From: Halomicrobium mukohataei DSM 12286
Lineage (GTDB): Archaea; Halobacteriota; Halobacteria; Halobacteriales; Haloarculaceae
NCBI RefSeq assembly: GCF_000023965.1
Contig: NC_013202.1
Location: 1,350,001-1,382,000, forward strand
Direction of reading: 5' to 3'
Length of the DNA: 32,000 nucleotides
Part shown: positions 2,578-21,574 of the stretch, piece after piece
How positions within the stretch are numbered: position 1 is the first letter of the stretch
How the letters are laid out: each line of letters opens with the position of its first letter
Notes under the pieces: generated by a model
Database searches by the model: none
What the model saw: the letters and a program-made list of their open reading frames with translations, nothing else
What the model was told of the DNA's origin: nothing
Position numbers and translations under genes: made by a program

Positions 2578-2614
2578 TGTCGGGCAAAACGGGGCTGTGC
2601 GTAAAGCGGCTTCG

Positions 2615-3055: not shown

Positions 3056-3098
3056 ACCGACGACTGGCCGGCGACGCGCAAAAGGTCTTGCTGTGCTC

Positions 3099-4394: not shown

Positions 4395-4476
4395 TGGCCG
4401 CCAGTTGTCCGGGACTGGACTTGAGGATTCTGTTCGACCGATAGCCTTTAGCTGACTGACTGGTGAATGGGAACGT

Positions 4477-5238
4477 ATGAAAGCTGTCGTCCTCGCCGCC
4501 GGGGAAGGCACCCGGCTCCGCCCGCTGACCGAAGACAAGCCCAAAGGAATGGTCGAAGTCGCCGGCAAGCCGATTCTCACTCACTGCTTCGAGCAACTGA
4601 TCGAGCTCGGTGCCGACGAACTGCTCGTCGTCGTCGGCTACAAGAAACAGGTCATCATCAACCACTTCGAGGACGAGTTCGAGGGCGTCCCGATCACGTA
4701 CGCCCACCAGCGCGACCAGAAGGGGCTGGCCCACGCCCTGCTGACCGTCGAGGAGCACATCGACGACGACTTCATGCTGATGCTCGGCGACAACATCTTC
4801 CAGGCGAACCTCCGGGACGTGATCAACCGCCAGCGAGAGGAGCGGGCAGACGCCGCCTTCCTCGTCGAGGAAGTGCCGTGGGAGGAGGCCTCTCGCTACG
4901 GGGTCTGTGACACCAACAAGTACGGCGAGATCGAGGAGGTCGTCGAGAAGCCCGACGATCCGCCGTCGAACCTCGTGATGACCGGGTTCTACACGTTCAC
5001 ACCGGCGATCTTCCACGCGTGTCACCTCGTCCAGCCCTCCAACCGCGACGAGTACGAGATCAGCGACGCGATCGACCTCCTGTTGCACTCCGGGCGGACC
5101 ATCGACGCCATCCGGATGGACGGCTGGCGCACCGACATCGGCTATCCGGAGGACAGAGACGCCGCCGAGAAACGACTCACGGGCGGTGCCGAAGTCGACG
5201 ACGATGAGGCCGTGCAGGCAGTCGACGGCGCGGAGTAG
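4477..5238 (+). CDS. aglF: Sugar-1-phosphate nucleotidyltransferase (glucose-1-phosphate uridylyl/thymidylyltransferase, AglF-like)
   Basis: [26 protein letters not shown] is the canonical GxGTRLxPLT NTP-transferase motif. The protein is 253 aa and the gene is divergent from aglM. Confidence 0.8.
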
Positions 5239-5279
5239 TCCCGACGGATTTTTACTGACAGCCCGTCCCGACTCTGACA

Positions 5280-6266
5280 ATGAAGATTCTCGTCACCGGC
5301 GGTGCGGGATTCATCGGCGGTCACATCGCCGAGCGGTTCGTCGTCGACGGGCACGATGTGGTCGCGCTGGACAACCTCGATCCGTTCTACGACGTGGACA
5401 TCAAACGGCACACGATCGAGCGGTGTCGCGAGCACGCGTCGTCGGGCGACGGTCGCTACGAACTGGTCGAGGGCGACGTGCGCGACGCCGACCTCGTCTC
5501 GGAGCTGGTCGCTGACGCCGACTACGTCTACCACCAGGCAGCACAGGCCGGTGTCCGTCAGAGCGTCGAGAACCCGCGCAAGTACGACGAGGTCAACGTC
5601 GACGGGACGCTGAACTTACTGGACGCCGCCCGCGAGACCGGTATCGAGCGGTTCGTGATGGCGTCCTCGTCGTCGGTGTACGGCAAACCGCGGTACCTGC
5701 CCTACGACGAGGAGCATCCGACGACGCCGGTCAGTCCCTACGGGGCGTCCAAGCTCGCGGCCGAGCGGTACGTCTGTGCCTACAGCGAGGTGTACGACCT
5801 GTCGGCGGTCGCGCTGCGCTATTTCACCGTCTACGGGCCGCGGATGCGCCCGAACATGGCGATCTCGAACTTCGTTTCGCGCTGTCTCGACGGCCGATCC
5901 CCCGTCGTCTACGGCGACGGGAGCCAGACGAGAGACTTCACCTTCGTCGAGGACGTGGTCGAGGCGAACGTCGCACTGCTGGACACCGACGCGGCCGACG
6001 GCGAGGCGATCAACGTCGGCTCGACGGACAACATCGAGATCGAGACGCTGGCCGAGGAGATCCGCGACCAGCTCGCGCCCGATCTCGATCTGGTCTACGA
6101 GGACCGCCACGACGCCGACGCCGAGCACACCCACGCCAGCACCGAGCGGGCCGCGGAGCTGCTGGGCTACGAGCCCGAGTACACGATCCGTGAGGGCGTC
6201 TCTGCCTTCATCGACTGGTACCGCGAGAACCGCGAGTGGTACGAGCCGCTGGTCCGCAACTCCTGA
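5280..6266 (+). CDS. NAD-dependent nucleotide-sugar epimerase/dehydratase (extended SDR; UDP-glucose or UDP-glucuronate 4-epimerase-like)
   Basis: MKILVTGGAGFIGGHI (TGxxGxxG) and the YGASKLAAE catalytic YxxxK motif. 328 aa. Confidence 0.88.
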   Translation: MKILVTGGAGFIGGHIAERFVVDGHDVVALDNLDPFYDVDIKRHTIERCREHASSGDGRYELVEGDVRDADLVSELVADADYVYHQAAQAGVRQSVENPRKYDEVNVDGTLNLLDAARETGIERFVMASSSSVYGKPRYLPYDEEHPTTPVSPYGASKLAAERYVCAYSEVYDLSAVALRYFTVYGPRMRPNMAISNFVSRCLDGRSPVVYGDGSQTRDFTFVEDVVEANVALLDTDAADGEAINVGSTDNIEIETLAEEIRDQLAPDLDLVYEDRHDADAEHTHASTERAAELLGYEPEYTIREGVSAFIDWYRENREWYEPLVRNS

Positions 6267-6280
6267 CGGTCACGGCACTG

Positions 6281-8053
6281 CTACTGTTCTTCGACGTGGC
6301 GCACCTGGCAGGCGATCCCGCGGGTGGCCTCGTCCATCGCCGGGCCGGGCATCGTCGCGCGACCGACGCCGAAGGCCGACGGCCCCTCGATCACGACCTC
6401 GTCGCCGACGCGGATCTCGTCGGCCGCGTCCACGACGCCCGGCGCGAGCACGGAGCCGTGTGGCACGAAGTCGTCGATCGCGACGCGCTTTACCGACACG
6501 TCCGAGTCGACCCACCGTCGGGCTCCCGCGATCGTGAGCCCGAGGACGCCGTACTGCTGGGTCAGCGCCGCCAGCTGTTCGCCCTGGCCGCCGTCGGTCC
6601 GTTCGCCGTGGGCCCGTAGCTGGGGGTACGTCCCCTCCGCGGTGAGCGTGTCGCCGAAGATCTCGTCGCCCGCACCGGCCCCGAACTGGTAGTCCGCCAC
6701 TGCCCGAAGCGTGTTGTGCTGGCGCTCGCGCTTGCGGTACTTCGGGTACCCCTCCAGCGCCCCGGCGAGGTTCGCCAGCGAGTCCGCCGTCGTCGGGTGG
6801 TCTTCGACGGTGTAGGTGAAAGACTGGTCGAGGCGCTCCTCGACGCGCTCGCAGATCTCGCGGTACCCCTCGCCGGGGACGTGGACGATCACTTCGGGGT
6901 AGTCGGTGCCGTCGAGGTAGCCTTCGAGCACGTCGGCCACGAACTCGATCTCGTTGGCGCTCCACCGCCCGGTCACGACGGAGTCGTAGTGCTGGGCCGG
7001 ATAGGTGAGCTCCAGTTCCTGTGGGACGACGCCGATCGGCGACGTCATCGACGCCATGTGGCCACGGAACTGGATCGCCCGGTGGTACTGCTCGTGGCTC
7101 TGTGAGTCGCTGTAGGGCTTGCGCGCCGAGCAGGGGACGATGACGAGGGGCTGCTCGTCGAAGCGGGGCCGGTACCGCTCGGTGACCCGCTGTGCGAACC
7201 GCTGGATCTCGACCCGGCGCATCGTGTCTTCGGTCGCGGCGGTGATCTCCTCGCGTCGGTAGATCGGCGTGTGTCGTTCGAGGTAGGCGTACTGCTGGTC
7301 GAGCCGCCGCACCGTCGCCGTCAGCCACTGGTCCTGGCGGGCCTGGCCCTCGACGTAGTCACGCAGCCGGCCGTCTCGAATCCGTCGGCGGACCCGGGCC
7401 AGCTCCGCTTCCAGCGCGTTGACGTTGTGGTCGACACAGTCCTGTCGGTCGAACTCCTCGCGGGGCTTGCGGCAGGCCGGACACGAGCAGGGCAGTTCGT
7501 CGAGGTCTTCCAGGAAGTAGGCGTCGTCGGTCGTCAGGTATCGCCCCTGTGTCCCCCGGACGACGGCCCGGTCCCGATCGACGAGGTCGACGCCAGCGTA
7601 GACCAGCGTGGCGACGTTGCGCGGCGTCGCGACGCCCGACAGCATCAGAGCGGTGTCGTCCGGCATCGCTTCGCGTGTCTCGATAACGGCCTCGACGAAC
7701 GCTTCGGCGTGGCCGACGAGCCCGGCGGCCTCCGAGAGGACGTACGCGTCCGCGCCGTGGTCCTCGGCCGTCGCCGTCGAGACGACGGCGGCGCTCGGAT
7801 AGTCCACGTCCGGATAGTCGACGGCGAACGCCTCGGCGACCTCCTCGGGCGTGCCGCCGGGGAGGCCGCGGTGCGGGAGGACGGTGAGGACGCTCTCGTC
7901 GCCCGCTGGCACGTCTCGCTCCGTCGGCCAGAGGCTTCCGGCGTCCGCGAGGTGGTCGTCCACGACCGCGGGCGTCGTGACCGGATCGGCCAGCCGCAAC
8001 TCGGCCAGCCGCGCCGCGCCGTCGCGCTCGTGAACCTCGAAGTAGTCGGTCAT
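6281..8053 (-). CDS. arcS: Archaeosine synthase alpha subunit ArcS (TgtA2) with a C-terminal PUA-like domain
   Basis: The start is taken at the ATG at 8051-8053 (MTDYFEVHERDGAARLAELRL…), paralogous to the TGT N-terminus. It has the CSCPAC zinc motif and a C-terminal segment (…VKRVAIDDFVPHGSVLAPGVVDAADEIRVGDEVVI) typical of PUA. It lies immediately downstream of tgtA. Confidence 0.85.
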   Translation of the reverse strand: MTDYFEVHERDGAARLAELRLADPVTTPAVVDDHLADAGSLWPTERDVPAGDESVLTVLPHRGLPGGTPEEVAEAFAVDYPDVDYPSAAVVSTATAEDHGADAYVLSEAAGLVGHAEAFVEAVIETREAMPDDTALMLSGVATPRNVATLVYAGVDLVDRDRAVVRGTQGRYLTTDDAYFLEDLDELPCSCPACRKPREEFDRQDCVDHNVNALEAELARVRRRIRDGRLRDYVEGQARQDQWLTATVRRLDQQYAYLERHTPIYRREEITAATEDTMRRVEIQRFAQRVTERYRPRFDEQPLVIVPCSARKPYSDSQSHEQYHRAIQFRGHMASMTSPIGVVPQELELTYPAQHYDSVVTGRWSANEIEFVADVLEGYLDGTDYPEVIVHVPGEGYREICERVEERLDQSFTYTVEDHPTTADSLANLAGALEGYPKYRKRERQHNTLRAVADYQFGAGAGDEIFGDTLTAEGTYPQLRAHGERTDGGQGEQLAALTQQYGVLGLTIAGARRWVDSDVSVKRVAIDDFVPHGSVLAPGVVDAADEIRVGDEVVIEGPSAFGVGRATMPGPAMDEATRGIACQVRHVEEQ

Positions 8054-8145
8054 GGCCCTGTATCGGCTACGGGGACCCAACTATCTTGCGAGTCTCATCG
8101 GCCGTCGAGTCGCCACACGACGGGACTGCAGACACGGCATACCGG

Positions 8146-9615
8146 TTAGTCCTCGCCGAGGTGGCGAACCGTCACCGAGTCGGGCACGCGAGCCAGCGCG
8201 CTCTCCGGCCACTCGAACTGCGCGAGCGTGACCGTCGCGTCGGGGTTGCACTCTGCCAGGCGGGCGACGCCGTCGGCGGCGGTCTCGTAGGCCTGTGGGG
8301 AGAGTCGCTCGGGGACTTCGGCGGTGAAGGGATAGGCGTCGCTCATCTCTCTGGGATAGGGGCCAAACGGGGGCGTCACCTGCCAGCTCTCGTCGTACTC
8401 TTCGTCGCGCTCGCCCTCGGTGAGCAGGATCGAGCCCGACAGGTCGAAGCGGTCGAGCCGCTGGTGGTGGCGCACGACCTCGGGGCGGCGCGCGCTCTCC
8501 GTCGACGTGTGGAAGACGGTGTCCTTGGCGATCCGATCGGTCGTTTCCAGCTGCTCGGCGTGGTCCAGTAGCGTCCGGTAGCCGTCGAGCATCGTCGGAT
8601 GTGCACGGGCCCGCGAGTCGACCAGTTCCATGAGATCCCCGTCTCTGATCGCCTGCTTGATCGTCCGGATCTCGCCGTAGGTGACGTGGAGGTTGTGGCG
8701 GGCCAGCAGGTCCTCGCCGCGCTGGTCGTCCATCGCCCTGAGGTCGGCGGGCTCGTACTCGACACAGACGGGACACGAGCAGGGGAAGTAGTCCATGTCG
8801 TCGAGGTGCTCGGTGCCCCGAACGGTGAGATACCGGCCGTCGCGAGCGTACAGCGCGTACGCCGCCGAGTCGAACAGGTCACAGCCAAGCGCGACGGCCA
8901 TCGCGAACATCATGGGGTGGCCGGCCCCGAACAGGTGGACCGGTGCGTCCTCGCCGAGCCCGCGCTTGCAGGCCGCGACCACGTCCGCCAGGTCGTCGTA
9001 GCGGTACTCGTTCATCAGCGGCACGACCGCGCCGACCGGGAACACGTCGAGGTCGGTCCCGTGTGCGTGCTCGGCCGCCCGCTCGCGCAGGTCGGGATAG
9101 GTCGAGCCCTGGATCGGCGCGGTCGTGAGCATCTCGCCGGTGTCGACGCCGTCGGCGATCTCCAGGCGCTCCTGGGTCGTCGCCAGCTCCGATTCGGCCC
9201 GCTCGCGCGCCACGTCCGGCGGCGTCGGGATGTCGACGGGCGTCCCGATGTCGCTCCCGATCTCTCGCTGGAAGGCCAGGATCTCCTCGGTCGTCACGTC
9301 GATCTCGCCGTACTCGGCCAGCTGGAAGGAGCCGGAGTCGGTCATGATCGCGCCGGGGAAATCGAGCAGCTCGTGGAGGCCCTGCCGTTCGGCCGGCTCG
9401 CGGAGGTCGTCGCTCTGGTGGAGGATGTAGCTGTTCGTGATGAGGATCTCCGCGCCGAACTCAGACGCCAGCGTGGACGGCTCGATCGTCTGGACGTGGG
9501 GGTTGACGACGGGCAGGAGTGCGGGCGTCTCGACGGTGACGCCGGCCCGGGGCACCGTCAGCTCGCCCAGACGGCCGGCCGCGTCGTACCGGCCGACTTC
9601 GAAGTGGTCTCGCAT
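8146..9615 (-). CDS. tgtA: tRNA-guanine(15) transglycosylase (archaeosine TGT)
   Basis: [39 protein letters not shown]…, DSGSFQ, LFGAGHP and CSCPVC motifs of archaeal TGT. 489 aa. Confidence 0.9.
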
Positions 9616-9657
9616 TACCCGCAGTGGGACGAGCGCGTGCCTAAGGGTTGCGTTCCG
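9530..9657. repeat. Direct repeat copy A: first 28 codons of tgtA plus 42 bp of its upstream region
   Basis: 128 bp match 12561-12688 (offset 3031) with a single mismatch at 9535/12566. Confidence 0.9.
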
Positions 9658-9762
9658 TGATAGTCAGTCAGCAGTCGCCGGTCCGCTGCTTGCCCGAGCC
9701 AGCGTGTCACCGAGCCGTCGGGCCGTCGGAACGTACAAAAATGCACCGCCGGTAGTGGGGCT

Positions 9763-10896
9763 ATGGATATCGCTGTCGCCTACGACAAATTCGGAAAGCG
9801 ATCCGCTTCGGGAGCACGCGTCTCGCTCCACACGTTGCTCGACGGGCTGCCTGACGCCTACTCTTTCAGTATCTACGATACGGTCCATCAGGACGAAGCG
9901 GTCCCCGACTTCGTCGACAGTAGACAGACGGTGTCCCCCAGACAGATACCGACGTTCGTTTGGACGAACCAGGTCCTCTATCGATGGCAGTGGCGAAACG
10001 GGGTGCGGGAGCGATTCGAAGCGAACGAGCACGACGTGGTGATCACACAGGGAGAAATCGCGCCAGCGACGGTACAGATCGCTGCCGAGACGGACACGCC
10101 TTCGATATTCTTTCTGAGGAGTTTGCAGGTCACCGGCACGGAGAAGTTCGATCCGCGCGACGACGCCGTCGAGAACTTTGCCCGCACCGATTTGGGCGGG
10201 CGCGTCCAGTTTCCGTTCCTCGCTCGAAACGTTCGAGCGTATCGGCGGGCCCTCGAGACGGCGGATGTCGTCGTAACCAACAGCGATTTCACCGCAGAGA
10301 GAGTACGAGAGCGGTTTGGGGTCGACAGCACGGTTATCTATCCCCCGATCACGCTATCCGACTACCGGGTCACGTCCGATCCCGACGGGAAGATCACGAT
10401 GGTGAATCCGAGATCGGCCGACAAAGGCGTCGATATCTTCCTCGACATCGCCGAACGGCTGCCCGACGAGGAGTTCCTGCTGGTCGGCACTGTCTCCCCC
10501 GACGCGGAGAAGCGCCGTGCCCAACGGCTCGACAACGTGACTCTGCACGGGTGGACTGACGACGTACGAGAGGCCTACGGGCAGTCGAAGCTCGTGGTGG
10601 TGCCGTCGAGGTACGAGGAACCGTTCGGCCGAGTGGCCGCCGAAGCGATGGTCAGCGCCATCCCCTGCGTGGTGAGCAACCGTGGCGGCCTCCCCGAAGT
10701 CGTCGGTGAGACCGGCGAGATCGTCGACGCGGTCGAGTCCGAGCGCGCCTGGATCAACGCCATCGAGCGGGCCCTGGCAACCGATCGTGGGGCGGCCCAG
10801 CGAGAGCGAGTCGAGCGGTTCGCCGCTGACAAGCAGGTCGAGAAGCTGCGCAAACTCGTCGAGCGCGCACAGTCCGGTCGTGGGACCGGAAACTGA
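9763..10896 (+). CDS. Glycosyltransferase, GT4 (GT-B fold) family
   Basis: 377 aa. The C-terminal segment VVVPSRYEEPFGRVAAEAMVSAIPCVVSNRGGLPEVV matches the E-x7-E retaining GT4 signature. Confidence 0.85.
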   Translation: MDIAVAYDKFGKRSASGARVSLHTLLDGLPDAYSFSIYDTVHQDEAVPDFVDSRQTVSPRQIPTFVWTNQVLYRWQWRNGVRERFEANEHDVVITQGEIAPATVQIAAETDTPSIFFLRSLQVTGTEKFDPRDDAVENFARTDLGGRVQFPFLARNVRAYRRALETADVVVTNSDFTAERVRERFGVDSTVIYPPITLSDYRVTSDPDGKITMVNPRSADKGVDIFLDIAERLPDEEFLLVGTVSPDAEKRRAQRLDNVTLHGWTDDVREAYGQSKLVVVPSRYEEPFGRVAAEAMVSAIPCVVSNRGGLPEVVGETGEIVDAVESERAWINAIERALATDRGAAQRERVERFAADKQVEKLRKLVERAQSGRGTGN

Positions 10897-10908
10897 GACG
10901 ACTGGCCG

Positions 10909-12354
10909 TTACTCTACGTAGCCGAGCTCTCGGAGCTGTTTCTCGACATCGCTGGACAGGTCGACATCTCGTGCGGTGTCGGAGACGCCCTCCAGTCGAT
11001 CGTTCAGAACCGTGCTCAGTTCTGCGACGATATCGCCGTGGTCGGCGGCGATGTTGTGCTGCTCGTCGGGATCCGTCCGGAGATCGTACAGGTGCTCTGT
11101 GTCGAGCTGGCGATTCCGGATGTATTTCCAGCGCTTCGACCGAACAGCGGCGACCAGCGTCTCTAGCGTCACGTCTCCTCCGAGCCCCTGCGTGTGACAC
11201 AGTTCGGCAATTGCGTAGTCGCGGTCTATCTGTCCCGTCTCATCACGAAGGGGTTCGAGCAGCGAAACGCCCCGCCATTCCGCCGGGGGGTCGACGCCGT
11301 ACCAGTCGGCGATCGTTGGCGCGATGTCGACGTGACTCCTCACTGCGTCGATGGAAGTCTCACCGGCGTACCGGCCGGAGTTGTCGTAGAGCAAAAGCGG
11401 CACTCGTATCAGCTCGTCGTACATTTTCGTCCGGTGGCCGAGCGTCCCCCGGTCGAACAGCTCTTCGCCGTGGTCCGCAGTGAACAGTACAACGCTGTCT
11501 TCGAGCAGTCCTCTGGCGTCGAGCTCGTCGACCAACCGTTTGGCCTCGCGGTCGACGTACCGTGTTGCCGCCGCGTAGAAATCCCGGAGGGCCTCGATTT
11601 CGGTCTCGGAGACAGCCTCAATCATCGAACCGTCGATAATGTCGGGCCGCGCGCGCCTGGCCTTGCGGACGACCCGTCGAATGCGTCCGACATCGTAGCG
11701 GCCGTCGTGGAACCGCTCGATATCTTCTCTGGGCGGATAGTACGGCGCGTGGGGCTCCATGTAGTGGGTCCAGACGAAGGCGTCCGCCGTCGTATCGACG
11801 TGCTGATCAACTAACGAGATGGTCGTATCGGTCACGTCTTCGGCACGGGGGTACGGACACGCTGGCGTGTCGTACACGTCTTTGAGCCCGTCGTACTGCA
11901 ATTTGAGTTCCGAGGCGATCGGGGAGAGAACCGGTGTGTTCTCTATCCCATCGACCAGCGTCGATTTCAGGCGGCGCGGAAAACTCTCGCCGGTCTGTTG
12001 GTCGTCGTCGACCCAGTCCTCGAACACCTCGAACCCACGGTCATAGTCATAAATACTGGAACAGGAAGTCTGGGCAGTGACACCAACCGTCTGGATCGAT
12101 GCATCGGAGAGAACCTCGGCGAGGGTGACGTGGTTCTCGTTCAGTCCGGCGTATCCGTGATCTAACGGGAGACTGCTCGCGTGAATACCGGGAAACGACG
12201 TTGATGTCCCGGAACCCGTCGAGATGTGCTGTGTGAACTCGATCGCATCTTCCTTGATAGAGTCGAGGAACGGGGTCGTCTGTGTCCCGTTTCTCGTGGC
12301 CGAAACGTGATCGTATCGCAACGCATCAAAAGAAATTACGAATACATTCGACAT
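10909..12354 (-). CDS. Sulfatase-fold (alkaline-phosphatase superfamily) enzyme, soluble, with a Thr-type active-site motif
   Basis: 481 aa. It has the N-terminal metal-binding segment VFVISFDALRYD, then GSGTSTSFPGIHAS, and later FTADHGEE. It is a paralog of 27273..28625, and both end in LRELGYVE / LRDLGYID. Confidence 0.85.
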   Translation of the reverse strand: MSNVFVISFDALRYDHVSATRNGTQTTPFLDSIKEDAIEFTQHISTGSGTSTSFPGIHASSLPLDHGYAGLNENHVTLAEVLSDASIQTVGVTAQTSCSSIYDYDRGFEVFEDWVDDDQQTGESFPRRLKSTLVDGIENTPVLSPIASELKLQYDGLKDVYDTPACPYPRAEDVTDTTISLVDQHVDTTADAFVWTHYMEPHAPYYPPREDIERFHDGRYDVGRIRRVVRKARRARPDIIDGSMIEAVSETEIEALRDFYAAATRYVDREAKRLVDELDARGLLEDSVVLFTADHGEELFDRGTLGHRTKMYDELIRVPLLLYDNSGRYAGETSIDAVRSHVDIAPTIADWYGVDPPAEWRGVSLLEPLRDETGQIDRDYAIAELCHTQGLGGDVTLETLVAAVRSKRWKYIRNRQLDTEHLYDLRTDPDEQHNIAADHGDIVAELSTVLNDRLEGVSDTARDVDLSSDVEKQLRELGYVE

Positions 12355-12451
12355 CTTGGACGAAGCTAGCCAAGACTCGGTAAAAAAGCACTGTGTAGTG
12401 CCGTGGGTCTCAGACGGTGGGGTTGCCTCGCGTCCCCGCCGACTTCACGAG

Positions 12452-12565
12452 CGCTCGAACAGCGCGTAGTAGAGCACGCCGGTCACGGTGCGCCCGTCAC
12501 GCAGTTCGTCTTTGCGGGCCGAATCGAGGAGTTCGTCGAGCGTCGTCGTCGCGACGCGGATCGAC
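12452..12565 (-). pseudogene. Orphan 3' fragment (last 38 codons) of a NUDIX hydrolase gene
   Basis: 114 bp align without gaps to 16848-16961 (offset 4396) with 5 mismatches. In the NUDIX frame, 3 are synonymous and 2 are conservative (A->S, E->K). Confidence 0.85.
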
Positions 12566-12688
12566 AGTGACGCCGGCCCGGGGCACCGTCAGCTCGCCCA
12601 GACGGCCGGCCGCGTCGTACCGGCCGACTTCGAAGTGGTCTCGCATTACCCGCAGTGGGACGAGCGCGTGCCTAAGGGTTGCGTTCCG
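12561..12688 (-). pseudogene. Orphan tgtA 5' fragment (start codon at 12644-12646 plus 28 codons) with a duplicated upstream/promoter region. It creates a 49-codon chimeric ORF at 12497-12646
   Basis: Copy A' of the 128-bp repeat. It joins the NUDIX fragment at a shared TCGAC (12561-12565). The chimeric ORF reads [28 protein letters not shown], then an out-of-frame DPRRDDDARRTPRFGPQRRTA*. Confidence 0.85.
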
Positions 12689-12749
12689 CGACCGAGCGGT
12701 ATCGATCTCTCGACGGTGGGTCCTCGCTGCCCCGCGCTGGGCAGTCCCG

Positions 12750-13304
12750 TCACTCCCTTTCGTCGCCGACCTGTCGCTGGATCCCCAGCCAGTGTGTCAC
12801 CGACCCGTCGGGGCCGGTGATCGGTGCGAGGGACACCCGGTTGCGAAATGGGGTCCCGTCTCGCCGGTAGTTCCGCAGTTCGACCGTGACACGCTCCCAG
12901 ATCGCCGTCGCCTCGCGGAGGTCGGCGACAGGTCCAGGCTCCGTGTCGGGACCCTGGAGAAAGCGGGGATTCTCGTCCAGTGCCTCTTCGAGCGAGTACC
13001 CCGTCAGGTCCCTGAAGCGCCGGTTCACGTACTGGATCGGGTTGTCCTGATACGCCGGCCCGGAGAGGGTGAGTCCGACGATCGCGTCGTCCAGCAGCCA
13101 GAGCCGCCAGACGAGTTCCCGAGTCCATCCCTCGACCCGCTCGCCAGCCGGCAGGACGGTCGGCGCGTCGAACGCCTCGATCCCGTCGTCAAAGGCGTCC
13201 GTTCGGGCGGCGAGGTCGTAGCGCTCGACGACCGTCGGGAACCGTCTCCGGAACGTCTCCGGGCCAGCGACGAGACAATCGGCGAGGTCGTCTCTGCGTC
13301 CCAT
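12750..13304 (-). CDS. Short LOV-type PAS domain protein lacking the adduct-forming cysteine (NCRFLQ -> NPRFLQ)
   Basis: 184 aa. Residues from about 75 to the end align by eye to phototropin LOV2. Matching segments are DNPIQYVNRRFRDLTGYSLEEALDENPRFLQGPDT…VTVELRNYRRDGTPFRNRVSLAPI…WLGIQRQ. The flavin-contacting R, Q, N, N and Q positions are kept, but Cys is Pro. Confidence 0.8.
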   Translation of the reverse strand: MGRRDDLADCLVAGPETFRRRFPTVVERYDLAARTDAFDDGIEAFDAPTVLPAGERVEGWTRELVWRLWLLDDAIVGLTLSGPAYQDNPIQYVNRRFRDLTGYSLEEALDENPRFLQGPDTEPGPVADLREATAIWERVTVELRNYRRDGTPFRNRVSLAPITGPDGSVTHWLGIQRQVGDERE

Positions 13305-13347
13305 CTCGTAGACTCGTCTTGCGGTTTCGGTGCAAAACGTCTGTCGT

Positions 13348-13590
13348 TCACTCGCCCCGAACCCGGTACCAGACCGTTTCGCCGACCGGCGACCTGCCGT
13401 CGAGGTCGAGTCGTCCCACGAACAGGTCCCGGACGGCGAACGTGACGGTCAGTTCGACGGACTCCCCGTCGTCGGCGCGGACCGTGACGACGCAGTGGCC
13501 GTCGCGTTCTTCGAGTGCCTCGATCTGCCCACGCTCCCACTGGTCGACGTGGTGGTCGGGCTCTCTGGCGTGGATGCGATCGTGGTTCAC
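13348..13590 (-). CDS. Small acidic hypothetical protein (80 aa)
   Basis: ATG start, acidic composition and GC3 bias. It overlaps the upstream ORF by 4 nt (13587-13590) and lies 43 nt upstream of the LOV gene. Confidence 0.55.
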   Translation of the reverse strand: MNHDRIHAREPDHHVDQWERGQIEALEERDGHCVVTVRADDGESVELTVTFAVRDLFVGRLDLDGRSPVGETVWYRVRGE

Positions 13591-13898
13591 GACGGGCTCC
13601 CGTCACAGCAGACGGTGTAACGAACGTCCGCGTCGACCAGGGCGGCGATCCGTTCGAGGACGGCAGTCGTCGTCTCCAGCGGGCCGAACTTGCTCACCGT
13701 CTCTCCGTCGGCTCGCAGGACGAGCGTCCACGCTGGGGCCTTCGCGGGCTCGTGACGCCGTTCGACGACGAGTGTCCGGTCGGGAAAGGCGAGTCGACAG
13801 TGGCCCTCGTCCGACACGGTCAGCGACACGCCCTCTCGGTCGCCGAACTGCTCTCGGAGCCCCACTTCGAGGTTAGCAGCGTGTTCTGGCTCGGTCAC
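13587..13898 (-). CDS. Small hypothetical protein (about 103 aa; VTEPEHAANLEVGLREQF…VRYTVCCDGSPS)
   Basis: Only the C-terminal third of the 201-aa track ORF looks like a haloarchaeal protein. A GTG at 13896-13898 is proposed as the start. The upstream part is Arg/Pro-rich and overlaps the divergent promoter and the flavoprotein gene. Confidence 0.4.
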   Translation of the reverse strand: MTEPEHAANLEVGLREQFGDREGVSLTVSDEGHCRLAFPDRTLVVERRHEPAKAPAWTLVLRADGETVSKFGPLETTTAVLERIAALVDADVRYTVCCDGSPS

Positions 13899-13999
13899 AC
13901 CGGCCGTAGCGCCTCTCGACCGATACGTGTTTCGCGGTTCGACTCGCGAGCGCGCACGCGCGCGAAAGCCGTAAGCGTCCAGAGCCCCTTCGTCTCGGT

Positions 14000-15796
14000 G
14001 TGAGCAACCCAGACACTGCCGACAGCGAGGAAACGTCTGTGCCCGGATACGAGCGAGTCGACGTCTCGGTACTCGTCGTTGGAGCGGGCGCTGCCGGCGC
14101 TCGTACGGCGATCGAACTCGCCGAGCGCGGCGTCGACGACGTGCTGGTGCTGGGCAAACGGAGCCACGGCGACGCGCACACGACGTGGGCACGCGGCGGT
14201 ATCAACGGCGCGCTGGGGACCCACGATCCGGATGACTCGTGGGCGATCCACGCCGCCGACACCCTCAACGAGGGCCACTTCGTCAACGACCCACAGAAGG
14301 TCGAGACGGTGACCAGACAGATGCCCGACCGCCTCAGGGAACTCGACGACTGGGGAATGGACTTCTCCCGGACGGAAGGCGGCGAGATCGACCAGCGATT
14401 CTTCGGTGCCCAGTCGTTCCGTCGAACGGCGTTCGCGGGCGATCACACCGGCGAGTCGATGCTGGAGACGCTCGTCGACCGGGCACAGGAGCTGTCGGTG
14501 CCGTACCGCGAGAACGTGATGATCACCAAGCTGCTGTCGGACGGTGACCAGTGCTACGGCGCGGTTGGGTTCGACATGGACTCCGGCGAGTTCGTGCTCG
14601 TCAACGCGGGGACGGTCGTGCTAGCGGCCGGTGGCTACGCCGCGGCCTACAACCGCCATACGTCTCGCGACGACGAGAACAACGGCGACGGTCCGGCACT
14701 GGCCTACCACGCGGGTGCCGAACTCGTGGACATGGAGTTCGTTCAGTTCCACCCGACGGGAATGGCGGTCGACGAAGACGATCCCGAGTGGGAGCCCTGG
14801 AGTGGGCGGCTCGTCACCGAGGCAGTTCGCGGCGAGGGAGGACACCTCTACAACACCGACGGCGAGCGGTTCATGGAGCGGTACTCGCCGGATCAGATGG
14901 AGCTGGACGCCCGCGACGTCGTCGCCCGAGCGATCGCACAGGAGATCGCGGAGGGGCGTGGCACCGACAACGGCGGCGTCTTCCTCGACCTCTCTCACAG
15001 AGACCGTACATTCATTCGAGAGCGTCTCCCGCGGATGTACGAGCGGTTCCAGGAACTGGGCGTCGACATGGCGACCGAACCCGTCGAAGTCGCGCCGACA
15101 GCCCACTACGGCATGGGTGGCGTCGCCGTCGACGAGCACGGGGAGACGGCCGTCGACGGACTGTTCGCGATCGGCGAGACGATGGCCGGCGTCCACGGTG
15201 CCAACCGACTCGGTGGCAACTCGCTGGCAGAGACCGTCGCGTTCGGCGTCGTTGCGGGCGAACGGATCGCCGAGCGCGTCGACGGAGCGGGGTACCTGCC
15301 CGAGGCGGTCGTCTCTGATATCGCCGACCCGCAGTTCCGTGGTCTGGCGACACTGGCCGGTCGAGACGGCGCTCACGACGTGACGGACGTGTTCACCGAA
15401 CTACAGGACCTGCTGTGGGAACACGCGGGTCTCCTGCGAACGGACACGTCGTTGCGGGCGGGCCTCGACGCACTCGACGAGGTCCGTCAGAAGGCCGCCG
15501 ACATGGACGTGGGTTCGGCGACGAGTTCGTCCTTCGAGTTCGCGATCGACATCGGGTTCATGCTGACCGCCGCCGAGGCGGTCCTGCGTGGCGCACTCGA
15601 ACGGACCGAGTCCCGGGGCGCACACTACCGGACCGACGAGACAGAGACGGATCCGGACTGGCAGTGCAACATCTACTTCGAACGCTCCGATGTCGGTGGC
15701 ATGCGGACCGAGACGCGACCGGTCGGCACGCCGAGCGACGCCGTCCAGGCGGCTCTCGACGAAGGACACGAACTGGATTACCACCAGCTCGAATGA
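14000..15796 (+). CDS. FAD-binding oxidoreductase of the succinate dehydrogenase / fumarate reductase / L-aspartate oxidase flavoprotein family
   Basis: 598 aa with a GTG start. Motifs are VLVVGAGAAGARTA (the GxGxxG dinucleotide fold), FVQFHPTG, RGEGG, PTAHYGMGG and ESRGAHYR. No Fe-S or membrane-anchor subunit genes are adjacent. Confidence 0.85.
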   Translation: MSNPDTADSEETSVPGYERVDVSVLVVGAGAAGARTAIELAERGVDDVLVLGKRSHGDAHTTWARGGINGALGTHDPDDSWAIHAADTLNEGHFVNDPQKVETVTRQMPDRLRELDDWGMDFSRTEGGEIDQRFFGAQSFRRTAFAGDHTGESMLETLVDRAQELSVPYRENVMITKLLSDGDQCYGAVGFDMDSGEFVLVNAGTVVLAAGGYAAAYNRHTSRDDENNGDGPALAYHAGAELVDMEFVQFHPTGMAVDEDDPEWEPWSGRLVTEAVRGEGGHLYNTDGERFMERYSPDQMELDARDVVARAIAQEIAEGRGTDNGGVFLDLSHRDRTFIRERLPRMYERFQELGVDMATEPVEVAPTAHYGMGGVAVDEHGETAVDGLFAIGETMAGVHGANRLGGNSLAETVAFGVVAGERIAERVDGAGYLPEAVVSDIADPQFRGLATLAGRDGAHDVTDVFTELQDLLWEHAGLLRTDTSLRAGLDALDEVRQKAADMDVGSATSSSFEFAIDIGFMLTAAEAVLRGALERTESRGAHYRTDETETDPDWQCNIYFERSDVGGMRTETRPVGTPSDAVQAALDEGHELDYHQLE

Positions 15797-15845
15797 CGCC
15801 GCTCGGGCGTCCCGAGGGGCGATCCGATCGTGTGACCGGTTGGAA

Positions 15846-16109
15846 CTACTTGCTGTCCGGCACGTCGAAGTAGCCCAGCGCGTCCAGAATTGCGCCCATT
15901 AGGAAGCTGATCACGGCGAGCACGACGACGAGGCTGGTCAGCACCGTCGAGATCGGCTCCGGGAGCGTAAACTGGAAGGCCGCGATGAACACGCACGTGA
16001 CGATCCCGACGACGAGGAGAAACGACCCCGCGCTCGGGTCCTCGCCGGTCAGGAACTCGATTCCAGAGAGCGAACGATCCGGCTGTTCGTCTGCGAGGTC
16101 GTTGCTCAT
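15846..16109 (-). CDS. Small membrane protein (87 aa, 2 predicted TM)
   Basis: Internal ATG at 16107-16109 (MSNDLADEQPDRSL…). It has an acidic N-terminus followed by two hydrophobic spans. The upstream part of the 191-aa track ORF is Arg-rich and overlaps the next gene. Confidence 0.55.
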   Translation of the reverse strand: MSNDLADEQPDRSLSGIEFLTGEDPSAGSFLLVVGIVTCVFIAAFQFTLPEPISTVLTSLVVVLAVISFLMGAILDALGYFDVPDSK

Positions 16110-16333
16110 GTCTCGGCCTCGGGTGCGGCTCGCTGGACGATCTGGACGAGATGGGAGATCCAGAGCCCGCCAGTGAAGCCGAACAGCACGGAGACGACGA
16201 CGACTTTCGTCATCAGCTCCAGTGGGGCGACTGCGGCCAGCAGGCAGAGCGTGCCAAACAGGAGCATCAATCCGTACTGGATGCGCGTCTCGGTGTCGAT
16301 CCGTGTGAGTGGTCTGGTGATTGTCGAACGCAT
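16106..16333 (-). CDS. Small membrane protein (75 aa, 2 predicted TM)
   Basis: MRSTITRPLTRIDTETRIQYGLMLLFGTLCLLAAV…. Its stop overlaps the start of 15846..16109 by 4 nt. An alternative start lies at 16378. Confidence 0.5.
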   Translation of the reverse strand: MRSTITRPLTRIDTETRIQYGLMLLFGTLCLLAAVAPLELMTKVVVVSVLFGFTGGLWISHLVQIVQRAAPEAET

Positions 16334-16396
16334 TGTATCTGTCTCGCCGCGGCTGCAGTGTCTGGTCGTCCCGTACACCGGCTCGTACTGTCAGCG

Positions 16397-16452
16397 GCCC
16401 ATCTGTGAACGAGTTCGCCACCCCGCGGTGGTGAAGACCGTCACAGATGGGC
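16397..16452. other. Strong stem-loop (12-bp perfect arms) between two small membrane-protein genes
   Basis: GCCCATCTGTGA (16397-16408) and TCACAGATGGGC (16441-16452) are perfect inverted repeats. The 32-nt spacer contains a near-palindrome, CCACCCCGCGGTGG. Confidence 0.45.
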
Positions 16453-16463
16453 TGCCGAGCGTT

Positions 16464-16694
16464 TCAGTCTCGGTACCGTTCGAGCTCCGTTTCGATCTCG
16501 CCCAGCCTGCGGTAGATGGCGAGACCGAGAATCGTCGCGGGCCACAGGCCAACGAACTGCCCGCGCTGTTTGTCTCCCCGAACGTAGTAGTAGTACAGTG
16601 CCAGCGCGACGGAGGCGATCGAGGCCAGTGCCGCCGGGCCGAGCGTCCGTTCGGCGTCACCGCCCGTCTCGACTGTTAGTTCTTCTGTGGGCAC
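16464..16694 (-). CDS. Small membrane protein (about 76 aa, 2 predicted TM)
   Basis: Only the C-terminal part of the 245-aa track ORF is plausible (VPTEELTVETGGDAERTLGPAALASIASVALALYYYYVRGDK…). The proposed start is a GTG at 16692-16694, with an AT-rich GATATATG box about 25 nt upstream. An alternative ATG lies at 16718. Confidence 0.45.
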   Translation of the reverse strand: MPTEELTVETGGDAERTLGPAALASIASVALALYYYYVRGDKQRGQFVGLWPATILGLAIYRRLGEIETELERYRD

Positions 16695-16843
16695 ACTGTT
16701 AACTAGCACCACGAACATATATCGCTTTGGTAAGAATTTCACTGAAGCGTGTTTTTTCAGCATCTCTTTGACCGCTCTGAACACTCTGAGACCGACGCCT
16801 CCGGGTGGCGCGTGGGCCGCAGACGAACGGCCGAGAGACGTCG

Positions 16844-17389
16844 CTACCGCTCGAACAGCGCGTAGTAGAGCACGCCGGTCACGGTGCGCCCGTCCCGAAG
16901 CTCGTCTTCGCGGGCCGCATCGAGGAGTTCGTCGAGCGTCGTCGTCGCGACGCGGATCGACTCGTTGCCGTCGAGGTCCTGCTGGGCCGTCTGCTCGCAG
17001 TCGCGGGCGACGAAGTAGTGGAAGACGGCGTCCGCGAAGCCGTTGGCCGGCTCGACCGTCGTCAGGTGTTCGAGCGACCCGGCCTCGTAGCCGGTCTCCT
17101 CGGCGAGTTCGCGACGGGCGGCGACCTCCGGATCGGCGTCGTCGGACTCCATCGAGCCGGCGGGGAGGCCGCGGTTCACGCGGCCGACCGCCTGTCGCCA
17201 CTCCTCGATGACGACCACGTCGCCGTCGGGCGTCAGCGGGAGGACGACGACGCTCTCGCCCTCCGCGAGGTAGTCGAATTCGGCGTCGGTCCCGTCCGGG
17301 AAGCGAACGCGCTCGTTGCGTACGTCGAATCCCGCACAGCTGTAGGCGACGTTGCGCTCCAGGGTCTCCCAGGCGAGTTCGTCAGTCAT
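16844..17389 (-). CDS. NUDIX hydrolase (ADP-ribose pyrophosphatase-like)
   Basis: The Nudix box GSMESDDADPEVAARRELAEETGY matches GX5EX7REUXEEXGU. The ATG at 17387-17389 (MTDELAWETL…) is preferred over the upstream TTG at 17416. Confidence 0.88.
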   Translation of the reverse strand: MTDELAWETLERNVAYSCAGFDVRNERVRFPDGTDAEFDYLAEGESVVVLPLTPDGDVVVIEEWRQAVGRVNRGLPAGSMESDDADPEVAARRELAEETGYEAGSLEHLTTVEPANGFADAVFHYFVARDCEQTAQQDLDGNESIRVATTTLDELLDAAREDELRDGRTVTGVLYYALFER

Positions 17390-17446
17390 GTCTCGGGGTG
17401 TGGGGACGACCGCCAAAAGATGCTCGGAAGCGTCGACGCCCAGGCG

Positions 17447-19501
17447 CTACAGCTTCTCCGCGTCGAGGGCCTGCTCGACGCGCTTGCGGGCCTGTGACAG
17501 CCGTCTGTCGACCGCTCGCTCGATGGGGTCGGGGAGGCCGTCTGCGGCCCGTTCGAGGTTGTCCGCGACCTGCTCGAACCCGCTCTGGACGGCCACGAGC
17601 CGACGGTCCGCTCCCTCTCGGTCGCCGTCTGCGGCCCGCCGGGCCGCTCGCTGTGCGGCGCTGCCGGTCGCTTCCAGTGCTCTGACGAGCCCCTGGACGG
17701 CGTTTGCCCTCCCATCGAGATCCAGTCCCTCGATCTCGGCGCGCGTCTCCTCGGTGATCGTCGCCAGAAAGCTCGCCAGCGATTCTTTCCCGGTGGTCGG
17801 CCGCTCGACCGCGATGCGGTCCTCGTCGGTCGGGTTCACGCGGACGGCCCCGAGTTCGTCGTCGCTGTCGCGGATCTCGCCCGTGTAGGCACCGCCGCGG
17901 TGGACGTAGACTGCGTCCGGCCCCTCGACCGGAGCGTCGTAGAGTCGTCCACCGAAGTCGTCTTCGAGCGCGAAGTCGGTCACCTCCGTCTCGCTCTCGG
18001 TCGGATCGACGGTCACCTTCGTCGCGTCCTCGCGAGTCACGAGCGGGATCTCGCCGTCGACGCCGGCCGCCGTCACGCCCCGGTCCTCGACCGTGATCGA
18101 CTCGCTGTGTGGCTCGACACCCGCTCCGTTGACGGTGAGACGGTGCTGGCCGGCATCGACGCCCTGTGCCACCGCGACCCCCCGGAACGTCGGGACGGCG
18201 CTCGGATCGCTCTCCAGCAGCGCGACGGACTCGACCGCGCTGTCCTCGGTGGTCACGCCTTCCCCGTCCGGAGCCTCGCCGTCTTCGACGAGCGAGGAGA
18301 CGGCGGTGACGACGGCGTTGACCGGTGCCGGCTCGCCGATCGCTGCGTACCGTTCGGCCAGTTCTCGGCGGTGGTTCGGGTCCGAGATGTCCGCTGCGGG
18401 GTTCTGGTAGCGAGGCTGGTTCCAGGGCTCGCCGGTCGTCGTGATGTGGCCGGCGACGGCGTCCTCGACGGCTTCCGGGACCGAGAACTCGAAGCTCAAC
18501 TGCGGGCCGGTGAACCCGGAGATGTGTTCGATGTCGGCCGTCGATCGGAGCTCGTAGGCTACGTCCGCGTCGGTCCCGGGGTCGTTGCGGCCCTCGAACT
18601 CGAAGACGAGCCCGGTCTCGCGCTCCGGGAGGTCCGTCGGCGGCGCGGAGAGCGAGTCGAACGACCTGACCGTCAGTTCGTCTGGCACGAGGTCTTCGGG
18701 CTCGACCGACGGGAGCCGGTCGTGCTCGTAGAGGGGTGCGCCGTCGAGTTCCGGGACGACGTAGGGGAGCCGACTCCCCTCGTCGCGGGGCAGCCCGTAG
18801 GCGACGGGAATCGAGGCGAGGGACTCGACGTCGTCGACGACGCGGTTGGTGATGTCCGCGATGTCGCCGCCCGTCGGCAGTCGCTGGAAGCGGTCGCGTT
18901 CCTCGTTGACCGACAGCGCGCTCGAATGGGAGCCCAGTTCCTGGAGGATCCGCGGCACGGTCCGATCGGGATCGAGAAACTCGTTGTTGGGCACGCTCCG
19001 GGAGTGGGAACTGGCGACGAACAGCGCGGGCTCGTCGCTGTCGGTGTCGACGAAGACGTGGAGCACCTCCCAGTCGTGCCAGTGGAAGTTCGTCGTGAAC
19101 TGGTCGAAGGCGCTGTAGGCCCAGTACTGGACGACCGCGAGCGGGGAGTCGTCGTAGGTGACGACGTTGTGGAAGACGGTCGGATCCGGCGGCGTCTCGG
19201 CGGCTCGAAATCGTTCGGTGTAACCGTCGAGTGCGTCGAAGCCGTCCACGACGGTTTCGCCCTCGCGGTCGCTCTCGTAGGGGCGTGGGTCGGTCGGGAA
19301 CCACTGCTCGGCGCTGTCGAAGTACAGCGTCGGTGCGAACCGCTCGGCCAGCTCGCGTGCGCGGCCCTCGTCGACCGGCGTCGTCGTCGCGTCCTCGCCG
19401 GCCTCCAGCGCGCTACAGCCGGCCACTGCGCTCGTCCCGACGGCGGCAGTAGCGGCGAGGAAGGCACGCCGATCGAGGAGATCGGAGGCGTACTCTGTCA
19501 C
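17447..19501 (-). CDS. Large Tat-exported lipoprotein of unknown function with an N-terminal Vps62/DUF946-like region
   Basis: 684 aa with a GTG start. The signal is DRRAFLAATAAVGTSAVAGC (twin-arginine plus lipobox Cys). Residues about 55-175 (FAPTLYFDSAEQWFP…VVQYWAYSAFDQF…HWHDWEVLHVFVD…SSHS) resemble my memory of Vps62-family motifs. Confidence 0.75.
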   Translation of the reverse strand: MTEYASDLLDRRAFLAATAAVGTSAVAGCSALEAGEDATTTPVDEGRARELAERFAPTLYFDSAEQWFPTDPRPYESDREGETVVDGFDALDGYTERFRAAETPPDPTVFHNVVTYDDSPLAVVQYWAYSAFDQFTTNFHWHDWEVLHVFVDTDSDEPALFVASSHSRSVPNNEFLDPDRTVPRILQELGSHSSALSVNEERDRFQRLPTGGDIADITNRVVDDVESLASIPVAYGLPRDEGSRLPYVVPELDGAPLYEHDRLPSVEPEDLVPDELTVRSFDSLSAPPTDLPERETGLVFEFEGRNDPGTDADVAYELRSTADIEHISGFTGPQLSFEFSVPEAVEDAVAGHITTTGEPWNQPRYQNPAADISDPNHRRELAERYAAIGEPAPVNAVVTAVSSLVEDGEAPDGEGVTTEDSAVESVALLESDPSAVPTFRGVAVAQGVDAGQHRLTVNGAGVEPHSESITVEDRGVTAAGVDGEIPLVTREDATKVTVDPTESETEVTDFALEDDFGGRLYDAPVEGPDAVYVHRGGAYTGEIRDSDDELGAVRVNPTDEDRIAVERPTTGKESLASFLATITEETRAEIEGLDLDGRANAVQGLVRALEATGSAAQRAARRAADGDREGADRRLVAVQSGFEQVADNLERAADGLPDPIERAVDRRLSQARKRVEQALDAEKL

Positions 19502-19571
19502 GTGTGCTCCTCGCCGGGCACGTCAAAAGGTCTTCTGGCACGTTCGGGACCGCACCAGCCGTGACCGTCGC

Positions 19572-20810: not shown

Positions 20811-20873
20811 ACCACTCTCCAACGTGGGGACCGAATCAAGTGGTTTTCGCACGCTTCCGAGGTCGCTCCTGGC

Positions 20874-21473: not shown

Positions 21474-21574
21474 ACCTGTCGGTGTGCAAGCGGCCATATC
21501 AGGGCTCCTGTTTCGGGTCGACTCGCTCGTTGAGAGAACAGTGCCCCACTTCCCAGTGACATCATCAGCGAGGA

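Follow-up and report, generated by a model that had tools for sequence, protein, structure and literature searches.

In the window analyzed here, 32,000 nucleotides (nt) of Halomicrobium mukohataei DSM 12286 (contig NC_013202.1, positions 1,350,001 to 1,382,000), the interval between tgtA and the NUDIX gene upstream of it contains two cassettes, X and Y. The order along the window is A-X-B′A′-Y-B, where A and A′ are copies of the tgtA 5′ end, and B′ and B are copies of the NUDIX 3′ end. The arrangement was probably produced by additive integration of a fragment of a donor allele, with a single homologous exchange within the 5′ end of tgtA and a single microhomology joint. As the outcome, full-length tgtA and NUDIX occupy the outer ends, X and Y stand in tandem, and the center consists of a NUDIX tail (NUDIX′) and a second tgtA promoter and start. 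The repeats and the joint, in window coordinates and with lengths of products in amino acids (aa), are:

9530–9657, minus strand: repeat A, with TCGAC at 9530–9534, tgtA codons 1–28 and 42 nt of upstream sequence with a TATA-like CCTTAG
12445–12565, minus strand: B′, an orphan NUDIX 3′ fragment made of the last 38 codons and an extra Ser codon, with its own TGA stop at 12445–12447
12561–12565: TCGAC microhomology, the novel B′/A′ joint, common to NUDIX′ and tgtA codon 28
12561–12688, minus strand: repeat A′, a second tgtA promoter with codons 1–28 and one private base, 12566
12646 to 12497 (12497–12646), minus strand: chimeric 49-aa open reading frame, 28 TgtA codons and then out of frame across B′; RefSeq WP_174259117.1
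16848–16961, minus strand: repeat B, the last 38 NUDIX codons, with TCGAC at 16957–16961

Two pairs of direct repeats were recovered with a repeat finder: D1, 9525–9660 and 12556–12691 (spacing 3031), and D2, 12441–12565 and 16837–16961 (spacing 4396). Base-level alignment of A and A′, which have the same orientation, revealed 127 matches in 128 positions, with a lone mismatch between G at 9535 and A at 12566. For B′ (12452–12565) and B, 109 of 114 positions matched, and the mismatches were located at 12499, 12502, 12505, 12513 and 12522. Repeats of such length and identity cannot be due to chance. All genes associated with the repeats are on the minus strand. B′ and A′ overlap by the TCGAC at 12561–12565, and the sequence spanning the joint is GCGGATCGACAGTGACGCC; the probability of a microhomology of at least 5 nt at a random joint is about 0.008. 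A preliminary description, made from the sequence of the window, had reported the same match counts and the abutment of B′ and A′ through TCGAC, and the alignments agree with it on both points. Its gene calls for tgtA, X, Y and NUDIX were likewise borne out by Pfam and NCBIfam searches.

Repeat A is identical to the H. katesii sequence along its full length. Its TATA-like CCTTAG, as read off the sequence, lies at about −27 from the tgtA ATG. X begins at position 9658, which is T in the window and C in all other sequences compared. Repeat A′ is of the resident type except for position 12566, situated 1 nt from the TCGAC joint. The A found there is private: the corresponding base is G in A and in three outgroup strains and T in the NUDIX parent sequence. 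In the tgtA frame the change is synonymous (ACC to ACT), and it could be either a polymorphism of the donor or a mutation associated with the joint. The second tgtA promoter and start codon head the 49-aa chimeric open reading frame. This frame, which crosses the joint, is a gene call in the deposited genome, is labelled 'MULTISPECIES' and is annotated on two chromosomes.

Three deposited genomes speak for the structure being real: DSM 12286, JP60, and a 3.09-Mb Halomicrobium chromosome (CP045142.1/GCA_009217585.1). Exact tgtA, GT4 (glycosyltransferase), sulfatase-fold and NUDIX proteins are present in all three at equal accession spacing (ACV47555-65, QCD66018-28 and QFR20823-33, respectively); for DSM 12286 and JP60 the gene order was deduced from identical proteins and accession order. 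A contig built independently from SRR017869 reads is identical to window positions 9628–12481. It ends 31 nt inside A and 30 nt inside B′, as expected from a k=31 assembly graph, which would branch at the repeats. Since the A at 12566 occurs in neither parental sequence, an assembler could not have built the joint from two alleles.

Sequence features of cassette X and its flanks point to a foreign origin. These features, together with the resident counterpart of the B′ flank, are:

9674–9725, minus strand: decayed 3′ remnant of a PAS gene, within the 105-nt stretch that separates A from the GT4 start
9763–10896, plus strand: GT4-family glycosyltransferase, X gene 1, 377 aa; Pfam Glyco_trans_1_4, Glycos_transf_1 and Glyco_transf_4
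10909–12354, minus strand: sulfatase-fold (alkaline-phosphatase superfamily) gene, X gene 2, 481 aa; Pfam Sulfatase, E 2.2e-40
12381–12402, minus strand: hairpin and T6 run, 43 nt past the B′ stop; one terminator-like site versus 0.2 expected
16788–16843, minus strand: conserved NUDIX trailer, 56 nt, shared by every resident-type allele, the empty one included; 42–53 of 56 positions identical among strains

X contains two genes only, with non-coding gaps of 105, 12 and 97 nt. The GT4 gene has a GC content of 0.63 and a GC content at third codon positions (GC3) of 0.78; for the sulfatase-fold gene these values are 0.60 and 0.73. The range covered by X (GC 0.60–0.63, GC3 0.73–0.78) is below that of tgtA, arcS and NUDIX (GC 0.69–0.71, GC3 about 0.91), with Y being intermediate. 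When about 15 billion proteins are clustered at 90% identity, each of the two X proteins stays alone in its cluster. The nearest homologue of the sulfatase-fold protein is 73% identical, and more remote ones are encoded in clusters with several GT4 and sulfatase genes. The contexts in which its homologues are found are either short contigs or such multi-GT4/sulfatase clusters, with neither NUDIX nor tgtA.

The X glycosyltransferase carries an EX7E motif at residues 286–294 and is predicted to be a retaining-type enzyme. Its score for PF20706, 'GT4 in conflict systems', also exceeds the Pfam gathering threshold (36.5 versus 26 bits), though general GT4 families outscore PF20706 by far and no defence-system context was seen. 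In the second X protein the canonical N-terminal (C/S)xPxR motif was not detected; the only match, SFPRR at residue 124, is outside the expected position. All NCBIfam matches of this protein are far under their cut-offs. The protein is best called sulfatase-fold. Within a few kb of X there are nucleotide-sugar genes (epimerase, NTP-transferase and UDP-glucose dehydrogenase), and this gene content suggests that the X cargo changes surface glycans.

The remnant at 9674–9725 aligns to positions 12762–12816 of the resident PAS gene with a local score of 52, compared to 17.2 ± 2.7 (maximum 29) for shuffled sequences, and its 30-nt core was recovered by the repeat finder as repeat D3. It reads ..PDGSVTRWLG.., the resident PAS reads ..PDGSVTHWLG.., and the resident gene ends in ..PDGSVTHWLGIQRQVGDERE followed by the stop codon. 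The two are about 85% identical, with indels. The presence of the remnant in the flank of X implies that the DNA carrying X derives from an interval in which the PAS gene used to lie beside the tgtA promoter. X thus comes from an orthologous, rearranged and diverged version of the NUDIX-tgtA interval, in line with the origin that had been suggested for it in the preliminary description.

At the other end of X, the B′ stop codon and the hairpin are contiguous with the cassette and are distinct from the resident 56-nt trailer. A marginal 15-nt match between the B′ flank and this trailer was the only one detected; it was equalled in 34 of 1000 shuffles and is not relied on. The hairpin with its T-run at 12381–12402 is probably the terminator of the donor NUDIX′, and transcripts starting at A′ would probably end there too. 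The T-run is located at −27 to −32 from the ATG of the sulfatase-fold gene and may double as the TATA element of that gene. The overall RNA fold of the spacer between B′ and the sulfatase-fold gene is unremarkable (z = 0.11), with only the local hairpin and T-run being notable. The case for a diverged donor is built on the PAS remnant, on the distinct trailer and terminator and on the composition of X, and not on B′ alone.

Of the five mismatches between B′ and B, those at 12499, 12502 and 12505 are synonymous third-position changes, as had been stated before. The remaining two, A to S (12522) and E to K (12513), had both been described as conservative, which does not hold for the latter since it reverses the charge. 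A sixth difference, at 12451 (CGC versus CGG), is synonymous, and the C-terminus of B′ is one codon longer, ending in ..FERS as compared to ..FER in B. When compared with B, H. katesii, Halomicrobium sp. LC1Hm and H. mukohataei WOYG01, B′ has five private differences (six including 12451, four of them synonymous). These resident-type copies differ mutually at 1–3 sites only in the B region, and this includes B against each of the other three. In a blastn comparison with all loci, the nucleotide identity of B′ was 94–95% to congeners and at most 76% to other genera, and the best placement was in Halomicrobium only. Of the 38 residues compared, the B′ peptide shares 36 with the mukohataei/katesii group and 29 with the next best match. 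The expectation that B′ would be closer to some foreign NUDIX orthologue was not supported: among 130 homologues there was no NUDIX C-terminus nearer to B′ than B. The B′ C-terminus (..DSARKDEL..FERS, then stop) was not found in any database sequence searched, so the donor is unsampled. A 24-nt private patch of B′ was absent from the Joint Genome Institute (JGI) metagenomes.

The resident genes around the repeats and the genes of cassette Y are:

6281–8053/8080: arcS, downstream of tgtA
8146–9615, minus strand: tgtA, intact, 489 aa; Pfam TGT, E 2.7e-87; resident
12693–16787: cassette Y (resident), boundaries set by the empty allele L171
12750–13304, minus strand: PAS/LOV-type gene (Y)
13348–13590, minus strand: DUF7861 gene (Y)
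13587–13898, minus strand: 103-aa gene (Y)
14000–15796, plus strand: SdhA/TfrA-like flavoprotein gene (Y)
15846–16109, 16106–16333 and 16464–16694, minus strand: genes of three small proteins (Y)
16844–17389, minus strand: NUDIX, intact, 181 aa; Pfam NUDIX; exact protein WP_015762411.1

NUDIX located directly upstream of tgtA and on the same strand is the common arrangement in Halobacteria. Across about 100 genome and metagenome loci the gap between the two genes ranges from 46 nt to 7.2 kb. Thus, the NUDIX-tgtA spacer is a variable slot that is filled differently by lineage, as had been proposed from the window. In the mukohataei/katesii clade, in which tgtA and NUDIX are at least 90% identical, the slot occurs in four states: it is empty, holds Y with either the PAS gene or VapBC, or holds X and Y together. 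H. katesii (locus L002) has Y only: sequences corresponding to window positions 3098–9660 and 12561–21476 are contiguous there, and exactly one 3031-base-pair (bp) unit is missing. Halomicrobium sp. LC1Hm and H. mukohataei WOYG01 also have Y without X, with a VapB/PIN pair replacing the PAS body. An environmental contig of the mukohataei group (L171; ENA ERZ23491536, scaffold_363, positions 6589–8730) has an empty slot of 126 nt. Relatives therefore do not all share the A-X-B′A′-Y-B structure. Both single-cassette alleles had been predicted. One of them, tgtA-Y-NUDIX, is present in H. katesii, and the other, tgtA-[GT4-sulfatase]-NUDIX, was absent from 80 genome loci, 80 metagenome loci and a 5.8-billion-protein database. 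The genome set comprised tgtA loci of species representatives and the metagenome set NUDIX loci, and tblastn with the GT4 and sulfatase-fold queries detected no X-like gene near NUDIX or tgtA in any of the 160.

In every comparison, homology upstream of tgtA stops between −43 (X) and −47 (PAS, VapBC, empty) from the ATG, just beyond the tgtA core promoter. None of 63 other loci with an interval of at least 300 nt holds remnants of its own tgtA 5′ or NUDIX 3′ end. A general displacement system operating at the NUDIX-tgtA slot was considered and rejected, as there are no remnants in these 63 loci.

Several features of the other slot states were recorded. The VapB-like (91 aa) and PIN (147 aa) pair is found at 9179–9975 of locus L086 and 9179–9975 of locus L087, opposite window positions 12693–13266. 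LC1Hm and WOYG01 keep the initial 38 nt of PAS together with the sequence upstream of it (homology resumes at 13267, with the PAS start at 13304), and their PIN gene stops 25 nt short of the tgtA ATG, within the conserved promoter block. The promoter-side spacer of the empty allele resembles the LC1Hm flank, and the empty state is either ancestral or a deletion of Y. The nearest NUDIX outside the clade (80% identity) is encoded on a metagenome contig, L172 (1–355 and 9653–13042). It has three different unannotated genes downstream of NUDIX, an unrelated filling, and a phage-type integrase about 9 kb upstream.

The resident flanks carry no sign of foreign sequence. The tgtA gene is 99% identical to that of H. 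katesii. Window-private single-nucleotide polymorphisms (SNPs) in tgtA, arcS and the NUDIX body amount to about 0.65% and are evenly spread, with none at 9463–9657, and no cluster of donor-type SNPs was detected in tgtA, arcS or the NUDIX body. Foreign DNA is thus confined to one unit, and this in turn calls for an exchange within or right at A combined with an illegitimate joint at TCGAC.

The following course of events would account for these data. The Halomicrobium ancestor would have carried Y, with the PAS gene beside the tgtA promoter. In an unsampled and more diverged Halomicrobium-like lineage, most of Y would have been replaced by a low-GC two-gene glycan module, which left no more than about 50 nt at the 3′ end of PAS. 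Donor DNA would then have entered the H. mukohataei DSM 12286 lineage, most likely via haloarchaeal fusion-based mating. The transferred fragment would have extended at least from about codon 144 of NUDIX′ to the tgtA promoter. It would have been added to the resident allele; a double crossover would have exchanged Y for X. One end would have been incorporated by homologous recombination within the 128-nt tgtA 5′ segment (A), and the other sealed by the 5-nt TCGAC common to the NUDIX′ coding sequence and tgtA codon 28. The processes invoked have been described in haloarchaea: fusion-based mating (PMC5496957), polyploidy (PMC4056108) and heteropolyploid states (PMC10085750), homologous replacement of loci between species (PMC3542582) and, in Haloferax, microhomology-mediated end joining with 4–20 nt (PMC12281630).

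The integration itself may have followed one of two routes. In route (i), microhomology-mediated end joining would first have turned the fragment into a circle, which a single crossover at A would then have inserted, as a natural Campbell-type 'pop-in'. In route (ii), homology-facilitated illegitimate recombination or a replicative template switch would have taken place: donor DNA would be anchored by A, and the return to the resident template would land 128 nt behind, at TCGAC. The synonymous nature of the change at 12566 speaks for a donor polymorphism and hence for route (i). Campbell-type integration of a circle carrying X had been named in the preliminary description as an alternative and, like route (ii), matches the need for an exchange at A and a TCGAC joint; the plain unequal crossover that it favored does not, with tgtA and arcS showing no cluster of donor-type SNPs.

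A number of observations weigh against integration of a diverged donor fragment as outlined above. The donor is unobserved, and neither an X-only allele nor a B′-type NUDIX C-terminus was found in the databases searched. In the strains sampled, A has evolved no more slowly than B, and a donor as diverged as B′ would be expected to differ in A at about 7 positions; only one A/A′ difference is seen. Under route (i), any site in A at which donor and resident differed must also distinguish A from A′. Route (ii) would explain this discordance between A and B′ if 12566 is a mutation associated with the joint, and so would a donor of mosaic origin or gene conversion after the event. The two routes cannot be told apart from sequence. 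Position 12481 in B′ and its equivalent in B, 16877, are third-codon positions that share a G where H. katesii has T and LC1Hm and WOYG01 have C. This agreement could be coincidental, at a site that is hypervariable, or could stem from gene conversion involving the two repeat copies. The numbers of differences, 5 of 114 (B/B′) and 1 of 128 (A/A′), are not significantly different (binomial p about 0.08), and the synonymous share of 4 out of 6 is only marginal (p about 0.06). Divergence counts alone are thus weak, and B′ taken alone could be a decayed copy of B.

We next considered explanations other than additive integration. Reciprocal recombination in a fused heterozygous cell, by a single unequal crossover at TCGAC between tgtA-X-NUDIX′ and tgtA-Y-NUDIX chromosomes and with no separate homologous exchange, would produce both the A-X-B′A′-Y-B order and the TCGAC joint. 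Fusion mating and heteropolyploidy are known in haloarchaea (PMC5496957, PMC10085750), and A′ would be of the resident type, in agreement with the near identity of A and A′ despite the diverged B′. However, everything to the left of X, including tgtA, arcS and beyond, should then be of the donor type. The 99% match of tgtA to H. katesii and the even spread of private SNPs, absent from 9463–9657, are not what is expected. A second homologous crossover within about 130–200 nt of X would be required, which turns this scheme into the integration model favored here, and the private base at 12566 would need a new mutation. We therefore regard a lone crossover of this kind as unlikely.

An origin within the resident locus, by tandem duplication of the A..B interval at TCGAC, later replacement of one Y by X, and decay of B′ from B, is less probable again. 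The grouping of B′ with mukohataei/katesii NUDIX sequences (36/38 residues, no closer foreign orthologue), the strain-specific G that B′ (at 12481) and B have in common, and the B/B′ and A/A′ difference counts, which are not significantly apart, are all consistent with it. However, three events are needed in place of one, and the swap of Y for X must run exactly from the NUDIX stop to −43 of tgtA, which implies that the X allele itself had homologous flanks. The PAS remnant, about 85% identical to the resident gene and with indels, cannot have the same age as A and A′, which are 99% identical, and the B′ trailer is unrelated to the 56-nt trailer of all resident-type alleles. Units of a simple tandem duplication should be homologous throughout; X and Y were found to share only A, B and the PAS remnant of about 50 nt.

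It is very improbable that X is an integrative element of viral or plasmid-like type with site-specific insertion at the tgtA 5′ end, a replacement start for the gene, and A and A′ as attachment sites. Direct repeats do flank the insert and the target gene is reconstituted, and haloarchaeal genomes are reported to contain many integrated elements (PMC5861418). However, X consists of the GT4 and sulfatase-fold genes only, with no integrase, transposase or replication gene and with gaps of at most 105 nt. No tRNA gene is nearby, the only one in the window being at 23403. B′, a fragment of the other flanking gene, is left unexplained by attachment sites, no such remnants are present in the 63 other loci, and the X proteins are singletons at 90% identity.

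Wrong joining by the assembler of two alleles that coexist in a polyploid culture is hardly credible either, even though haloarchaea are polyploid and can be heterozygous (PMC4056108, PMC10085750) and the read-based X contig, which stops at the repeats, cannot alone separate a tandem from an allelic arrangement. The B′/A′ joint with its private base occurs in neither hypothetical allele, the frame crossing the joint is annotated on two chromosomes, and protein order is equal in three deposited complete genomes. Together with the independent read contig, these data dispose of the artefact that had earlier been named as a way in which the repeats might prove spurious.

Campbell 'pop-in' merodiploids are a gene-replacement tool in Haloferax and in bacteria. 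The locus resembles such an integration in that direct repeats of the homologous arm (A/A′) flank the insert, insert and one repeat together make up one circle (3031 bp) with one novel joint, the empty site in the close relative H. katesii lacks exactly one unit, no foreign DNA extends beyond the unit, and either repeat pair could resolve to one allele. In contrast to the laboratory procedure, the event occurred in nature and involved neither a vector nor a selectable marker. Its homologous arm measures just 128 nt, and the ends of the putative circle would have been joined through 5 nt of microhomology shared by two chromosomal genes.

Homology-facilitated illegitimate recombination is known from Acinetobacter, Pseudomonas stutzeri, Streptococcus pneumoniae and E. 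coli conjugation (PMC3240628). There, as here, one foreign end is anchored by homology (the left boundary is within or at A, and the flank is of the resident type), the other end lies at a short microhomology, and non-homologous DNA is gained. The joint described here differs in being located behind the anchor, so that 128 nt of recipient DNA are duplicated and none deleted. No archaeal case of this type of recombination was apparent from the titles and abstracts of the top-ranked literature matches.

Orphan-module arrays formed by displacement at type VI secretion system effector-immunity, Rhs and contact-dependent inhibition loci (PMC5361080) are similar in that the incoming module is added through recombination in a conserved flanking gene, and the old module is displaced with orphan fragments of that gene staying behind. 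Unlike in those systems, no toxin-immunity pairs are involved, the cargo being a pair of glycan-modification genes alongside a mixed accessory cassette, and a single event took place, with no array. Core-flanked hotspots, or variable islands (PMC3542582), are similar in that a pair of core genes, here NUDIX and tgtA, brackets content varying between close relatives, with four states in the present case. What sets the locus apart from them is that an intermediate survives with both cassettes and both joints. Comparative genomics mostly sees only the replaced end-states. We conclude that the locus is the result of known recombination processes and not a new kind of system.

The window offers a base-resolution case of a haloarchaeon adding a cassette at a core-bracketed slot, in place of swapping it, through about 128 nt of homology and 5 nt of microhomology. 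Both joints of the additive acquisition are preserved, and such intermediates are uncommon. With four allelic states in one species-level clade, the slot is a tractable natural system for the roles of homologous recombination, microhomology joining and polyploidy in archaeal gene transfer. The strain would have gained a glycosyltransferase and a sulfatase-fold enzyme beside nucleotide-sugar genes. In Haloferax, mating efficiency is affected by surface glycans (PMC5496957), and the X cargo may alter glycans of the cell surface. Either repeat pair could also delete one cassette, with A/A′ recombination leaving Y only and B′/B recombination leaving X only.

There is only a slim chance that the tandem is a maintained three-state genetic switch in a polyploid archaeon. 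If it were, recombination between A and A′ would generate Y-only genomes and recombination between B′ and B X-only genomes, and chromosome copies of the X+Y, X-only and Y-only types would segregate within a cell or population. Surface glycans, and thereby virus susceptibility and mating compatibility, would vary accordingly, and the duplicate tgtA promoter in A′ would drive new transcription towards the sulfatase-fold gene. In a weaker form of this reading, the locus would be the first case in Archaea of illegitimate integration anchored by homology that arose naturally and is resolved in sequence.

Two products of cassette Y deserve a separate description. The PAS protein (12750–13304) is LOV-like, its best NCBIfam match being the YtvA family, below the cut-off. 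It has the sequence ENPRFLQG, with Pro replacing the photoadduct-forming Cys, and an N-terminal extension of about 70 aa with no domain match. The flavoprotein (14000–15796) is nearest to the thiol:fumarate reductase TfrA and SdhA/FrdA models and scores under every equivalog cut-off (542 bits versus 718 for TfrA). It is a stand-alone protein, with no adjoining genes for iron-sulfur or membrane-anchor subunits. The flavoprotein gene is flanked by small genes, two of them with transmembrane-like segments, and is found in Halomicrobium loci only.

Elsewhere in the window, blastn alignments with H. katesii break at 922–1241 and 2579–3097, which have no counterpart in that species. These strain-specific indels fall in a nucleotide-sugar/radical-SAM/VanZ neighbourhood. 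Directly upstream of NUDIX, positions 17447–19501 encode a conserved 684-aa protein that has no Pfam or NCBIfam match and is syntenic with NUDIX across Haloarculaceae, with 61–74% identity in many loci.

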